From sequence record PQ306574.1: a stretch of 64,000 bases of DNA; one strand, written 5' to 3'. The translations under genes and the position numbers were made by a program. The notes under the pieces were generated by a model that saw nothing but the letters and a program-made list of their open reading frames with translations, ran no database searches and was not told where the DNA came from. The DNA is from Escherichia phage vB_EcoM_PTE-Eco09. This document shows positions 12,123 through 62,259 of this stretch, one piece after another. The stretch's first letter is position 1. Each line of letters begins with the position of its first letter.

Positions 12123-13070
12123 ATGACGTATAACCCATTTACAAAAACGACCGCTACACTTAATGATTTCTTCGATGATCCAGAAGATAAACTGCCGGAA
12201 GGTGTGCATTTGATTGATATGTCGCAGCTTATGATTGCTACTATCTCACATACCTTTAAACCGGAAGATCCTATTAATGAAGGTATGATCCGTCATCTTA
12301 TCCTTGACACCATGCGTTATAATATGACAAAATTCAAAGAGCAATACCCAATTACGGTACTTGCCTTTGATTCAAGCAAAGGTTACTGGCGACGTGATAT
12401 CGCCCCTTACTATAAACGCAACCGTAAGGAAAAACGAGACGCAGATCCGCGTGATTGGGAGATGATCTTTGCTGCGATCAATAAGATCACCGAAGAGTTT
12501 AAAGAGAACATGCCTTATCACGTTATTAAGGTTGACAAAGTTGAAGCGGATGATATAATCGCTGTATTAACTAAAAAGTTTTCTGTAGAAGGTCGCCAGG
12601 TGCTAATCAACTCCGGCGATGGTGACTACACACAGTTGCACAAATACAAAAATGTGAAACAGTGGGCACCAGTACAGAAAGCGTGGAAGAAATGCAAATA
12701 TGGTAGCCCTTACAAAGACCTTATGGTAAAATGTGTTAAGGGTGACGCAAAAGACGGTGTAGCTTCTATCAAGTGCCGTAGTGATTTCATTATCTCACGA
12801 CTGGAAGGAGAACGAGCTAAACCAATTGCAACCAAATGGTTAGAGCAAATTTTCGATGCCGAAGATCCAAAGTCTTTGATGACAGAGGAAGAAGCACGAC
12901 GCTTTGACGAAAACCGCGAACTTATTGATTTTGAATTTATTCCTGATAACATCGAATATGAAATTTTGTTAGCATGGGAAAAATCTAAACCAGCACCACG
13001 CGGTAAAATTTATAACTATTTTGTAACAAATGCGTTAGTTAAAATGTTGCAGAAAATTGGTGAGTTCTAA
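12123..13070 (+). CDS. rnh: RNase H (5'-3' exonuclease / flap endonuclease)
   Basis: 315 aa; colinear similarity to T4 RNase H (SGYWRRD, YKKNR, YEADD, DGDFTQLHKY-like, KQW-P, NVASVK-like, RSDF, EGER, IDF-YIPDNI, PRGKIY-YF). Confidence 0.9.
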   Translation: MTYNPFTKTTATLNDFFDDPEDKLPEGVHLIDMSQLMIATISHTFKPEDPINEGMIRHLILDTMRYNMTKFKEQYPITVLAFDSSKGYWRRDIAPYYKRNRKEKRDADPRDWEMIFAAINKITEEFKENMPYHVIKVDKVEADDIIAVLTKKFSVEGRQVLINSGDGDYTQLHKYKNVKQWAPVQKAWKKCKYGSPYKDLMVKCVKGDAKDGVASIKCRSDFIISRLEGERAKPIATKWLEQIFDAEDPKSLMTEEEARRFDENRELIDFEFIPDNIEYEILLAWEKSKPAPRGKIYNYFVTNALVKMLQKIGEF

Positions 13071-58204: not shown

Positions 58205-58792
58205 ATGTTTGACCAGTTACAAGATCTATTTGGAGTAAAACCACTTCGTAGATGTGCTTTAATCGGCTCTAGAAAAGCGCCTAGCGACATTTTGATAATG
58301 GCTAGTACCATTGGGAGGGTATTGTCAGAAAATCGCGTTGTAGCGCATTCTGGAGGGGCTTACGGTATGGACAATGCTTTCATGAAGTATTACGATCCAG
58401 AGTATAGAAAAATTTTCATTCCAAATTGGAAGTTTTATGACCACAAGCATAACGGTCATGATGTGATTGCATGGCAAACCTTAGAACAAAAAAATCTGGC
58501 GATGGATGAATTAGAACACGTTTATGATAATCCTCGTTCTATACCGTTATACATGCAAAATCTGTTTTCTAGAAATGTTGCTCAAGTCTTAGGTGAGACA
58601 CTTGATGATCCTGTAGATTGTGTGATATTCTGGGCGAAAGAAGTTAATGGAATCGTTTCTGGAGGAACTAGAATTGCTGTTTATGTTGCCCGTAGACATG
58701 GGATACCATGTTTTAACTTATATCATCAAGAAAATAGATCCGCCGTCGAAAAAATCTTGGGCGGATCTGACTTGTCTTGGTTAGATATTTAG
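58205..58792 (+). CDS. DprA/Smf-like (SLOG-superfamily Rossmann) protein
   Basis: 195 aa; IGSRKAPSD…VVAHSGGAYGMD and C-terminal IVSGGTRIAVYVARRHGIPCFNL match the DprA-type Rossmann core pattern. Confidence 0.45.
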   Translation: MFDQLQDLFGVKPLRRCALIGSRKAPSDILIMASTIGRVLSENRVVAHSGGAYGMDNAFMKYYDPEYRKIFIPNWKFYDHKHNGHDVIAWQTLEQKNLAMDELEHVYDNPRSIPLYMQNLFSRNVAQVLGETLDDPVDCVIFWAKEVNGIVSGGTRIAVYVARRHGIPCFNLYHQENRSAVEKILGGSDLSWLDI

Positions 58793-60034
58793 TTAAGCGT
58801 TGTCAATCTCAAGCGGTGGCAGTTCGATTCCTAAAATGTAGGACATTTCTGAACGTCCAGCCATTTTACCCCAATCGTCACCCTTGATGACCTGGTGTTC
58901 TTCCTGATCAACTTTTGATGTATATGGGTTGACAGAGAGTGAATAACGATTCATAATAGCTACATGATGCTGGAAGCTATTAGGGTCAATTACACTCTTA
59001 TACGCGCCAGCGCCGTCGGCTTCTGTATATGGGGAGTAGAACAGAGAACCTACACTCTCCATATCACCGATCATGTGCTTACAACCAACGAGCATATAAT
59101 CGAAAGGTGTTGTCGTGTCTGCGTACACTTCCAGACCGCAACGTAGACGACCTTCGCTTAGAGCATTGTCGGTTTCTTCCATCCAACCGGAAGATTGCAG
59201 GAGGCCAACCACGCGAGAAGACGCCAAAACGTATGTACCAGCAAAGGAGGAAGTCCGCAACATTTGATTGCTCATTTCGCAAGCATAGCGGTAAAGTTCA
59301 CGCGCTTGTGTTGGTGCATCCTGAACGCTAACGAGAGAAAGTACGCCATCAGGGGTGATCCCTTTAATTTTATAGCGAGATGATACAGTGATCAACTTCT
59401 GAATAATATCTTTGTTGATCTCTTCGGAAGCAACAGTAGCCAGAAGATCAATTACAGAGTTTTCAGAGTTGATTTGGCTTGCCTCAAGATCCTGCATCAA
59501 TTCGGTCGTGAATGAGGTTTTCAGTTTACGAGAACCTACATTAACTTGCCACTTGTCAAACTGCATAGAGGTAGACGCAATTTCGGTGTTTTTATCTTCA
59601 AAGTATTCTACCGATGCACAATCGCTATAGAAACGAATTTTGTTTGTCATTACGCCTTTAAAGATCGCAGCTTCTGGAGTTGCGGCATCTTCACCGACTG
59701 TACCAGCGGTCACAACTTCGTATACAACATCGCCTGATTTGAATAGTGCGCCTTCGTCATAAGATTTTTCTTTTGAAAACTCTTCAATCTCTGTGCGATC
59801 ACCAACCGCGCCACCGTAGGTTGCAGCAGTTCGGAAAGTCATCTGACCATCATGATTAAGATAACGTAGGCCGTACAATGCAGATACTGGTTGATCCGTT
59901 GGCTGGATTGCTACCAGATCAGAGAAAATCAGGTTGTTTACCGCGCGAGTTAATGATAATAGTTGCGGTCGCGCTGTCTGGTTAGCTACTGAGGAAGTAG
60001 ATTCCCGCAACAGTTCAGTAAAAATATGAGTCAT
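58793..60034 (-). CDS. 24: head vertex protein gp24
   Basis: About 413 aa; adjacent to gene 23 and similar to it in places (paralog relation as in T4); start at Met 38-45 nt downstream of a TATAAATA late promoter. Confidence 0.75.
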   Translation of the reverse strand: MTHIFTELLRESTSSVANQTARPQLLSLTRAVNNLIFSDLVAIQPTDQPVSALYGLRYLNHDGQMTFRTAATYGGAVGDRTEIEEFSKEKSYDEGALFKSGDVVYEVVTAGTVGEDAATPEAAIFKGVMTNKIRFYSDCASVEYFEDKNTEIASTSMQFDKWQVNVGSRKLKTSFTTELMQDLEASQINSENSVIDLLATVASEEINKDIIQKLITVSSRYKIKGITPDGVLSLVSVQDAPTQARELYRYACEMSNQMLRTSSFAGTYVLASSRVVGLLQSSGWMEETDNALSEGRLRCGLEVYADTTTPFDYMLVGCKHMIGDMESVGSLFYSPYTEADGAGAYKSVIDPNSFQHHVAIMNRYSLSVNPYTSKVDQEEHQVIKGDDWGKMAGRSEMSYILGIELPPLEIDNA

Positions 60035-60071
60035 GTTTATGAATCCTGTATTTGCCTTAATGGATATATCA

Positions 60072-60079
60072 TATTTATA
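60072..60079 (-). promoter_or_regulatory. T4-type late promoter (TATAAATA) for gene 24
   Basis: TATAAATA on minus strand upstream of gene 24 start. Confidence 0.55.
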
Positions 60080-60118
60080 CAAAAAGAAAAAGGAATCCAA
60101 AGGATTCCAAAAATAAAC

Positions 60119-60271
60119 TTACTTCTTCCTAGAAACATTATCAACGCTACGGTTAACTTTGTTTACCAGATTAATTGCATGATCAGAACGAATAATTGCA
60201 TAAGCTAATGCTAACATCAATTCGTTGTATTCCTTACGAGTCATAACATAGCTGTTTTCTTTCTTACTCAT
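60119..60271 (-). CDS. hypothetical small protein (50 aa)
   Basis: Strong SD AAGGAGG 6 nt before ATG; MSKKENSYVMTRKEYNELMLALAYAIIRSD…; hand-derived. Confidence 0.4.
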   Translation of the reverse strand: MSKKENSYVMTRKEYNELMLALAYAIIRSDHAINLVNKVNRSVDNVSRKK

Positions 60272-60566
60272 GCATTCCTCCTTATGGAGAATTTTGGGTT
60301 AGTTCAGGGAACAGCGTACCAAAACCAAAAATTACCGCTAGCGTCACGCTGGAATGCCATAACAAGGTCCGTCATACACCAGATCTTGTATATCTATCAA
60401 ATCTATCCGACCCAACATCAGCATGAACGCTCATTTCATTCATTGGTCCCTTTGCCATGCAGTTACTACGAAAATTGGTGGAATTGTTTGTTGTGTGTAT
60501 CTATTTTCGCTCCCAATAGAATATAGGCTTGCAACCTTATTTATGACGGGTTATAATACGCAAAAA

Positions 60567-60592
60567 GGGAAGACCCTTTCGAGTCTTCCCTT
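60567..60592 (-). terminator. terminator after gene 23
   Basis: GGGAAGAC-TCGAAAGG-GTCTTCCC followed by TTTTT on minus strand; second hairpin GGTCGGGT/ACCCGACC at about 60633-60653. Confidence 0.55.
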
Positions 60593-60675
60593 TGGAATTA
60601 ACACTTTACACTGTCATAAGGTTTATGATAGGTCGGGTATTGCACCCGACCGGAGTTTTTCAGGAATTGCTTATA

Positions 60676-62259
60676 TTAGCAACCTTTAACCCAAACACGA
60701 CGGAAGTATGCGTTTTTACCTACGCTGTCTTTGCTCAACATACCGGAGGTGATGCGAGCGGACGGTGACTGGGATTTGCTGTCTGCAAACGGGTTAATAC
60801 CGATGCCGTAGCGAGTCTTGAAGCCAAGAACCGGGTGGAAAGACTGCGGGTCAGTTGCACGCAGCGGAGTCAGAGCAACATACGGAGCATAGTAGATACC
60901 AGCATCCATTTCGTTATCGCCTTTGTAACCTACGGTGAAGTAGTCCTGACGAGCATACTGGTCGATGAATACTTTGTACTTACCAGCCAGAACACCAGCG
61001 AAAACAGCTTTAGTGGTGTCGGTATTCAGACCCTGTGCAGCACCCTGCATAGCAAGACTGATACCCTGATCAGCAGAAGCCAGAATGTTTACAACGTTAC
61101 GGGAAGCGATAATAAAGTTACCAGCACCGCGACCAGTCTGACGAGCGATTTCAGCAGCTTCTTTGTCGATCTGGTAGATCAGAGATTTGAAGGATTCACC
61201 AGCCCAACGAGCACCGCGAGTATCGATCGGGTCTTGCAGGTCAAATACACCAGCTTTAGAACCAACGGTCTGAGTCATACCAGTCTTACCAACCTGAGCG
61301 GTAAAGTTGATCACATCAACGATTTCGCGGTTGATTTCCAGCAGAACTTCGTTAGCCAGGATAGCATTCAGTTCGGCATCAGCATCCATACCGTGTACAG
61401 CACGCAGATCCTGCGCAACTTCGATAGAGTAACGAGCTTTCAGTTGGCGAGATTTCGCTTCAACAACCTGTTTGTCAATACGCATTGACATTTCGTTCCA
61501 CGGGTTATTCTGAGAACCATTAAACCCTTGCTGCAATTCAGCGATGGAAGTAGCCATACCAGCAGCAATTTCAGCCAGTTCGCCTTTTTCGATCAGCTTC
61601 ATTACGCATTCATCAAGGGTATCTCCCGCCTGAGTAGGTGTTACGGTAGAACCTTTAACGTTTTGCAGATATGCAATACCAGTCTGTTCGAATACGTGAT
61701 ATACAATATCACCTTCGTTGATTGCTTGGCTGTTTTGCAGTTTCTGGAATGCAGTACCAGTCGGAGAGCTTGCGGTTGCGTCTTTAGCGGCAAGAGAGCT
61801 ATGATATACATCCGGCGCAAACATCGGGTGGAATGCTTCGCGAGCATCGGATTTCAGCGGATCGCCACCGTATACAGAACGGATTGCAAAGATCTGGCTA
61901 GTCGGAGTGCTCATCGGCTGAACGCCACAAATATCAAATGCGATCAGGTTAGGGATAGCACGGCGAACCATACCGATAACAGCCGGACCTACGTTGGTGA
62001 TTGCACCAGTGGTCTGACCTGCGGCGATTTTGGATGCATCGTAACCGTGGTCGCCAGCAACTTCTGCTTCGGTGATAAAGCCACCAAATGCTTCAACAAC
62101 TTTTTCATCCTTATAGATCGGGTCTACAGCAAAATCCGCTTCCTGAGATTCCAGAATTTTAGCAACCAGTTTCTGCTTAGACGCAGTTGCGATTTCCGGC
62201 AGTTTTTCGTTCTCCAGCAGCGGGGACCATTTTTCCATCAGTTCTTTGGTAGTTTTCAT
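60676..62259 (-). CDS. 23: major capsid protein gp23
   Basis: 527 aa; near-colinear identity to T4 gp23 (PEIA, KDEK, GDHGY, IAAGQT, GPAV-GMVRRAIPNLIAFDICGVQPM, SIAELQ-GFNGS-NPWNEM, RIDKQV-EAKSRQLKA-YSIE-AQDLRAVHGMDADAEL, GIYYAPYVALTPLR). Confidence 0.97.
   Translation of the reverse strand: MKTTKELMEKWSPLLENEKLPEIATASKQKLVAKILESQEADFAVDPIYKDEKVVEAFGGFITEAEVAGDHGYDASKIAAGQTTGAITNVGPAVIGMVRRAIPNLIAFDICGVQPMSTPTSQIFAIRSVYGGDPLKSDAREAFHPMFAPDVYHSSLAAKDATASSPTGTAFQKLQNSQAINEGDIVYHVFEQTGIAYLQNVKGSTVTPTQAGDTLDECVMKLIEKGELAEIAAGMATSIAELQQGFNGSQNNPWNEMSMRIDKQVVEAKSRQLKARYSIEVAQDLRAVHGMDADAELNAILANEVLLEINREIVDVINFTAQVGKTGMTQTVGSKAGVFDLQDPIDTRGARWAGESFKSLIYQIDKEAAEIARQTGRGAGNFIIASRNVVNILASADQGISLAMQGAAQGLNTDTTKAVFAGVLAGKYKVFIDQYARQDYFTVGYKGDNEMDAGIYYAPYVALTPLRATDPQSFHPVLGFKTRYGIGINPFADSKSQSPSARITSGMLSKDSVGKNAYFRRVWVKGC

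Follow-up and report, generated by a model that had tools for sequence, protein, structure and literature searches.

The question raised by this locus is what occupies the roughly 400 bp between gene 23 and gene 24 of Escherichia phage vB_EcoM_PTE-Eco09 (sequence record PQ306574.1), a place where phage T4 carries a gene. In the window, by which we mean the whole 64,000-nucleotide stretch of DNA analysed here, this interval runs from 60272 to 60675. The initial annotation saw no credible ORF in it and suggested either a degraded gene remnant or a noncoding RNA. Our analysis shows that the interval is very probably the deletion scar of a ~3 kb, three-gene, fibre-like cassette, lying beside the regulatory signals of the late head operon. 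The verdict is a pseudogene scar together with known kinds of regulatory signals, in other words ordinary gene decay and not a new RNA gene.

The window comes from a Krischvirus, a T4-type phage resembling RB49, Phi1 and GEC-3S. A megablast search with 60000-60800 returns 59 phage records (identity 90-98%), of which nearly all are Krischvirus (RB49, Phi1, JSE, GEC-3S and relatives). In the annotated relatives, the minus strand carries in order gene 23 (major capsid), the interval, a 50-aa ORF, a terminator and gene 24 (vertex), and the features of the window are arranged in the same frame of reference in Table 1. The absence of a credible ORF is borne out on both strands, where none is conserved: on the minus strand the longest reach 23-28 aa in the window and 23-64 aa across 13 near-identical phages, and on the plus strand two ORFs (80 and 88 aa) have no PHROG match and are disrupted in relatives. 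The 50-aa ORF, which had been noticed for its strong Shine-Dalgarno sequence, is a real, conserved gene. Its AAGGAGG stands 5 nt upstream of the ATG, its product matches phrog_16600 over the full length (E 1.5e-38), and it is conserved in the 13 phages.

As for T4, the interval between its genes 23 and 24 does hold a gene, namely segD on the opposite strand, showing that the same position of the head cluster hosts optional DNA. SegD is a GIY-YIG homing endonuclease, however, and the fossil here is dissimilar to it, being derived from late fibre-like genes on the same strand as gene 23. A remnant of segD was considered and rejected, as tblastn of SegD against 13 scars gives only matches with E > 3. 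The idea of a degraded gene remnant is thus right, with a same-strand late cassette as the source and not the occupant found in T4.

Table 1. Coordinates of the features discussed (positions in the window unless another record is named)
Feature	Coordinates	Strand	Remarks
Gene 24, vertex	58793..60034	-	By comparison with annotated relative
Terminator downstream of the 50-aa gene	60092-60108		
50-aa gene (RB49 ORF162w, phrog_16600)	60119..60271	-	Intact; first real gene past the scar
Last ~55 codons of the lost 309-aa coiled-coil gene	60282..60446	-	Native stop at 60282-60284
phrog_20809 pieces	60372-60458		In Phi1, ORF161.1 = L003 1804-1941
Junction A	60426..60446	none	~20 bp imperfect homology AACGCTCATTTCATTCATT
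Internal fragment of the lost 570-aa fibre-like gene	60426..60496	-	~24 codons, about aa 423-446; TQQTIPPIFVVTAWQR at aa 423-438
First ~5 codons of the lost 102-aa gene	60487..60500	-	Start ATG -> ATA at 60498-60500
Conserved late leader and decayed Shine-Dalgarno of the lost 102-aa gene	60501..60537	-	Leader AAGGUUGCAAGCCUAUAUUCUA; Shine-Dalgarno AAGGGGAGCG -> AUUGGGAGCG
Sigma-70-like match TTGCAA-N17-TATAAT	60529..60557	+	10/12 positions, -35 4/6
Putative relic of T4-type late promoter	60538..60545	-	CATAAATA in the window vs TATAAATA in most relatives
Hairpin 1, intrinsic terminator of gene 23 (predicted)	60564..60593	-	Stem 11-13 bp, then UUUUU
Hairpin 2	60631..60651	-	GGTCGGGU-GCAAU-ACCCGACC; starts 25 nt past the gene 23 stop
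Gene 23, major capsid, 527 aa	60676..62259	-	
Intact cassette of G2248	L005 2037-5009		

The source of the scar is seen in a minority of relatives. In the annotated records of G2248, JK32, Brandy, UPWr_E1 and SSG23, an intact cassette lies between gene 23 and the 50-aa gene, with three genes on the same strand encoding proteins of 102 aa (~100), ~570 aa and ~309 aa (~300), and JK32 has an additional fourth gene for a coiled-coil protein of 614 aa. The 570-aa gene is full or near-full-length in six phage records, the one in SFHK24 being near-full-length and identified by tblastn only. On the whole, the cassette is intact in only 6 of ~60 Krischvirus records. The records and contigs carrying it are L005 (G2248), L006, L015-L017, L018-L020, L023 and L024. 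Among these, L018, L019 and L020 are metagenomic T4-like contigs with cassette homologues at 37-43% identity, arranged as gp23, ~100 aa, ~560 aa, ~300 aa (with coiled-coil paralogues) and gp24. A 43-aa ORF precedes gp24 in L019 and L020, and that of L019, whose cassette protein is only 43% identical, is a homologue of the 50-aa gene at the same position. The interval is therefore not simply a spacer in all relatives, the cassette being intact in the six Krischvirus records as well as in the distant ones. Judging from these comparisons, the cassette is ancestral and the RB49-type state a loss, because the homologues in L018-L020 keep the same synteny, and because an internal piece of the 570-aa gene cannot be older than the gene itself. 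In Brandy and the metagenomic relatives L023 and L024 the 570-aa gene is split, which suggests that it is dispensable and often inactivated.

The nature of the cassette is indicated mostly by its 570-aa product. This family is small (22 clusters, each ~560-575 aa where intact), and the protein contains a collagen-like G-x-x run. Its structural model is of medium quality (mean pLDDT 61), with a C-terminal domain at 80-90. Searched against a PDB library, the model resembles phage baseplate and receptor-binding proteins, a pyocin fibre and TNF/C1q jelly-roll domains, and against a viral library tail-fibre, BppU, C1q-domain and collagen-like proteins, all of these being matches at the level of domains. 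The ~100-aa protein corresponds to phrog_16217, and the 309-aa and 614-aa proteins are coiled-coil. Pfam and PDB sequence searches of the three cassette proteins give nothing useful except the coiled-coil signal. From the model and its matches, we infer that the lost cassette would be a late-expressed virion fibre module, and it may be a virion fibre not yet described. The cassette encodes one to three coiled-coil proteins, which have an N-terminal motif in common.

Fragments of this cassette are found in the interval in the expected order and on the expected strand. Blastx of the window gives E 2e-7 against the 309-aa protein, in two frames with frameshifts and a stop codon, and E 4e-4 against the 570-aa protein, while the longer scar of TB34 gives 4e-14 and 7e-9, respectively. 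At the DNA level, the 309-aa remnant is 90-92% identical to SSG23, UPWr_E1 and Brandy, and the 570-aa fragment is 88-89% identical to the Brandy allele (blastn). At Junction A the 3' end of the 309-aa gene is fused to the interior of the 570-aa gene, with ~1.18 kb deleted. At a second junction, GTCTTT(G/A)T, the 570-aa fragment is fused to the start of the 102-aa gene, with ~1.48 kb deleted. A further deletion of 99 bp has taken place between 10-bp direct repeats TTTGTTGTGT, at a site within 60487..60500; the upper end of the 570-aa fragment (60487-60496) is the hybrid copy of this repeat and shares bases with the opening codons of the 102-aa gene. Most relatives are ~95-100 bp longer than the window at the interval, and this difference is the 99-bp deletion, which is common to the window, LF73P4, JSE, Makalu003, 011D4 and phiS. 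The carriers are assigned to different species (JSE, the RB49-type 011D4 and the gec3s-type Makalu003), so that recombination could have spread it. In all, ~85% of the cassette is absent from the window. An intact frameshifted gene is not what remains, since only ~20% of the interval's ancestral content survives, and the translated search finds fragments only. The lesions in the window include truncation, frameshifts, a stop codon, a lost start codon and variable ORFs, and similarity, synteny, disabling lesions and relaxed constraint, by which a pseudogene is recognized, are all present. When the TB34 interval is used for a sensitive blastn search, six larger Krischvirus genomes best-match only its gene 23-proximal third. 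A repeated element, which might be read from '3-4 places per record' in G2248-type phages, is rejected, as these places are three collinear fragments too distant to join.

The course of events may be reconstructed as follows. In the ancestor, a late promoter would have driven the genes for the 102-aa protein, the 570-aa collagen/C1q-like fibre and the 309-aa coiled-coil protein. Two deletions between short direct repeats (~1.48 kb and ~1.18 kb) would then have removed ~85% of the cassette and left 60272-60487 as its fossil, next to the minus-strand regulatory DNA of the late head operon at 60488-60675, which would comprise a hairpin, a terminator, a late promoter and a leader. The two large deletions can be placed in the common ancestor of most RB49-like phages, the 99-bp deletion at its 10-bp repeats probably came third, in a sub-lineage including the window, and frameshifts and substitutions would have accumulated after the deletions.

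When 13 scar-bearing phages are aligned, the difference between decay and constraint is clear. Per 100 columns, 13.8 are variable in the fossil, 1.3 in the 50-aa gene and 6.7 at the 3' end of gene 23; the fossil shows 13 distinct gap patterns and the other two segments none. The substitution density of the fossil is thus ten times that of the 50-aa gene, and its indels have sizes of 1, 2, 4, 12, 13, 22 and 99 bp. The ~190 bp proximal to gene 23 (60488-60675) have only two gap patterns, both close to the gene 23 stop, and the hairpins, promoter and leader are free of gaps; as the 13 phages are closely related, the small number of indels in this regulatory half is partly due to shared ancestry. 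The fossil RNA folds with no excess of structure (z = +0.6). At the far end of the fossil there is a small minus-strand hairpin at 60275-60291, UUCUCC-AUAA-GGAGGAA. Its loop contains the stop codon at which the ancestral 309-aa gene ended, and its 3' arm includes the Shine-Dalgarno sequence belonging to the 50-aa gene. This hairpin looks like a relic of translational coupling, and in the scar-bearing phages no translation enters it.

The two hairpins reported downstream of gene 23 are both found (Table 1). The 131-nt 3' region of gene 23 folds at -44 kcal/mol, compared with -23.7 ± 3.4 for shuffles (z = -6.0). In eight sequences, 97.5% of the cells of both hairpins are paired and 4 pairs have changed on both sides, a result not reached by any of 500 shuffles, and slid controls give 39-62%. 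For hairpin 1 alone, 97% of cells are paired and two pairs are changed on both sides. It has the G+C-rich stem, the U-run and the compensatory conservation of an intrinsic terminator, and the records of TB34, GEC-3S and G2248 annotate it as one. JK32 retains its U-run on the minus strand only, and in L018 and L019 a different hairpin with a U-run replaces it at the same place. Hairpin 1 is accordingly named here as the predicted intrinsic (Rho-independent) terminator of gene 23. Hairpin 2 is invariant across Krischvirus including JK32, with a conserved GCAAU loop, shows two compensatory changes in L024 (UA->CG and CG->UA), and is lacking from L018 and L019, which are more distant. Because it has no minus-strand U-run, hairpin 2 is probably a stability or processing element at the 3' end of gene 23 mRNA. 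In the spacer between the hairpins (60604-60622, minus strand), a motif GA[CT]AGTGTA within ATGACAGTGTAAAGTG is kept in JK32, L023 and L024 despite divergent flanks.

Beyond the terminator lie the signals of a putative late promoter. Along the gene 23 mRNA, aligned with cassette-bearing and divergent relatives, the order is stop codon, hairpin 2, a short conserved spacer, hairpin 1 with its U-run, TATAAATA, the leader AAGGTTGCAAGCCTATATTCTA, and the Shine-Dalgarno sequence and ATG of the 102-aa gene. The gp55-dependent late promoters of T4-type phages have the motif TATAAATA, and the arrangement of terminator, motif, ~35-nt leader, Shine-Dalgarno and ATG is the same as for genes 22, 23 and 24 and in the cassette-bearing relatives. 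For example, in the window each of genes 22, 23 and 24 is preceded at 32-37 nt by a perfect TATAAATA, and the motif is perfect too in the six aligned Krischvirus-type sequences bearing the cassette. The cassette-bearing phages conserve the motif, leader, Shine-Dalgarno and ATG together. Hardly any change is seen in the leader among G2248, Brandy, UPWr_E1, JK32, L023 and L024, and its core TTGCAAG is found in L018 and L019 as well. In contrast, all scar-bearing phages have a weakened Shine-Dalgarno and have lost the start codon (ATG -> ATA). The promoter motif itself remains perfect in 10 of the 13 scar-bearing phages, and the window, JSE and phiS carry the one-base, first-position change to CATAAATA. 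The window thus differs from the standard T4-type late promoter in that it has CATAAATA and the gene once served is gone.

As for transcription, the arrangement of these signals suggests that the gene 23 mRNA would end at hairpin 1, with hairpin 2 as an extra 3' structure, and that late transcription would either restart at (C/T)ATAAATA or read through the terminator. The transcript would then cross ~265 nt of dead sequence, reach the 50-aa gene and stop at the terminator downstream of it. We infer that the fossil would be transcribed only as a ~265-nt untranslated leader to the 50-aa gene and would have no function of its own. Since the late promoter in the window carries the first-position change, the 50-aa gene may depend on read-through from gene 23 instead of on this promoter.

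The plus strand has a signal of its own to be explained. A promoter-like TTGCAA-N17-TATAAT had been placed at about 60531-60559 and described as pointing straight into the hairpin; the site does exist and its -10 does end 6 nt before hairpin 1, while its actual position is 60529-60557. Markov simulations of the window show that sites with at least 10/12 matches are expected ~14 times per strand per 64 kb, or about once per 4.5 kb. Conservation of TTGCAA needs no function on the plus strand, because the hexamer is self-complementary and forms the core of the conserved minus-strand late leader. We judge that the match probably overlaps the late promoter and leader by chance. Apart from this site, the window as a whole is rich in such sequences on the plus strand, with 64 sites of at least 10/12 against 13 on the minus strand in 1-58000. 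Many of them are perfect TTGACA-N16/17-TATAAT (for example at 12532, 14895, 15988, 17249, 40149, 56679 and 57251). This excess is consistent with the dense early promoters (PeSLs) of RB49 and Phi1.

Of the other explanations, one is that the site is itself a PeSL (promoter-early stem-loop), which served as the recombination site for excising the cassette. The PeSLs are promoter-terminator cassettes described in RB49 and Phi1 (Arbiol et al. 2010, PMC2839356; Comeau et al. 2014, PMC4122927). They are sigma-70-like promoters with an adjacent stem-loop, the authors list 51-52 of them, and in one subclass the stem-loop comes just downstream of the -10; a few PeSLs lie within the virion module (PMC2839356). 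They were thus defined in exactly the same phage group as ours (PMC2839356), and the site resembles them in having sigma-70-like hexamers beside a strong, G+C-rich stem-loop, at a locus of gene gain and loss in the same genus. The geometry also fits the subclass, as the -10 ends at 60557 and the stem of hairpin 1, the adjacent stable stem-loop, starts at 60564. However, the -35 is weak, the -10 is not conserved, and downstream there is no plus-strand Shine-Dalgarno with an early ORF, the DNA there being antisense to gene 23. The stem-loop is moreover oriented as the terminator of late gene 23 on the other strand. When the interval is compared with the rest of the 64-kb window as a test for a repeat, a mobile element or a PeSL family, no other copy and no repeat-family member is found. 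The deletion junctions, for their part, lie inside coding sequence at microhomologies, and not at the site or at a second PeSL. A PeSL of this kind is in our opinion very unlikely.

The second alternative is an early plus-strand sRNA of ~95 nt (~60564-60660), transcribed by host sigma-70 from the site at 60529-60557, containing the two hairpins, ending at the T-run that follows 60651, and antisense to the 3' UTR of gene 23. If true, this would add an antisense control, early to late, over the late transcript most abundant in RB49-like phages. Some features do agree with it: the site has a perfect -10 and 10/12 matching positions, the early strand of the genome is the plus one, as the excess of 64 over 13 sites indicates, a 100-nt plus-strand stretch folds well (z = -4.9), and hairpin 2 followed by GGAGTTTTT is flagged as a plus-strand terminator. 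The promoter, however, has a -35 of only 4/6, whose palindrome TTGCAA belongs to the minus-strand late leader, while most genuine early promoters in the window have TTGACA and 11-12/12 matches, and a 10/12 site is of the kind expected by chance. Neither is it conserved, for the -10 reads TATGAT in LF73P4 and Makalu003 and is absent in JK32, L018 and L019. G2248, Brandy, UPWr_E1 and JK32 have no T-run behind hairpin 2 on the plus strand, and only on the minus strand is the U-run of hairpin 1 conserved. Covariance-model and tRNA scans, proposed by the initial annotation as a check, have been run and find nothing. Rfam cmscan of 59900-60900 at permissive thresholds gives no family match but only chance matches (E 0.18-9.5), all far below the gathering scores (the top ones 19.6 bits, E 0.18, against 114, and 21 bits against 72), and ARAGORN detects no tRNA or tmRNA in the whole 64-kb window. 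The sRNA is thus very improbable. More generally, a noncoding RNA in the interval is unsupported, as there is neither an Rfam match nor a tRNA, the fossil shows no excess of structure, the hairpins are accounted for as 3' structures of the gene 23 transcript, and the plus-strand -10 and T-run are not conserved in G2248 or JK32.

The least probable explanation, which we hold to be extremely unlikely, takes the remnant ORFs as genuine small genes (Phi1 ORF161.1, JSE_00166, TB34_019; phrog_20809): many GenBank records annotate a CDS of 45-62 aa here, a PHROG family exists, and JSE and phiS retain the native C-terminal frame of the 309-aa protein, but the ORF represents the C-terminal residues 261-302 of the intact 309-aa protein, varies in length (23-64 aa), start and C-terminus among the 13 near-identical phages, is broken into 28- and 23-aa pieces in the window, lies in the stretch with the region's highest indel and substitution density, and has no conserved Shine-Dalgarno upstream. 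Indeed, the 45-aa profile of phrog_20809 ('unknown function') aligns to the same residues of the intact protein, and this family appears to consist solely of a pseudogene fragment. The CDS annotated here in Phi1, GEC-3S, JSE, TB34, MIZ6 and Makalu phages are likely not genes. The 'hypothetical proteins' of this locus in dozens of RB49-like genomes, including those named above, should not be counted as genes or ORFans, because they are fragments of a dead gene.

A scar of this kind agrees well with other gene-loss scars of T4-type phages. The fragments are collinear with the intact genes of relatives, repeats of 6-20 bp are found at the junctions and at the 99-bp deletion, and there are frameshifts, stops and a raised density of indels and substitutions. 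It is unlike other such scars in that its pieces are annotated in databases as hypothetical proteins, even with one PHROG family. A literature search finds no description of the gene 23-24 scar in RB49-like phages and no transcriptome data for RB49-like phages. What the deletion scar offers is a record, base by base, of how a T4-type phage very probably lost an optional late module, with three deletions at 6-20-bp repeats followed by neutral decay, and with the upstream terminator and promoter kept. The lost module, with its ~100-aa, collagen/C1q-like fibre and coiled-coil proteins, may merit study in the few phages retaining it.

Two observations concern the neighbouring genes. Convergent with gene 24 there is a plus-strand ORF of 195 aa (58205-58792; ORF164 in Phi1), at the place corresponding to rnlB in T4, and a similarly positioned 187-aa ORF in L018 has a faint match to Pfam DNA_processg_A (DprA-like). 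The major capsid protein (60676-62259) has 527 aa in the window compared with 528 or 532 aa in close relatives, and its substitutions and indels concentrate around residues 130-215, a variable surface region.
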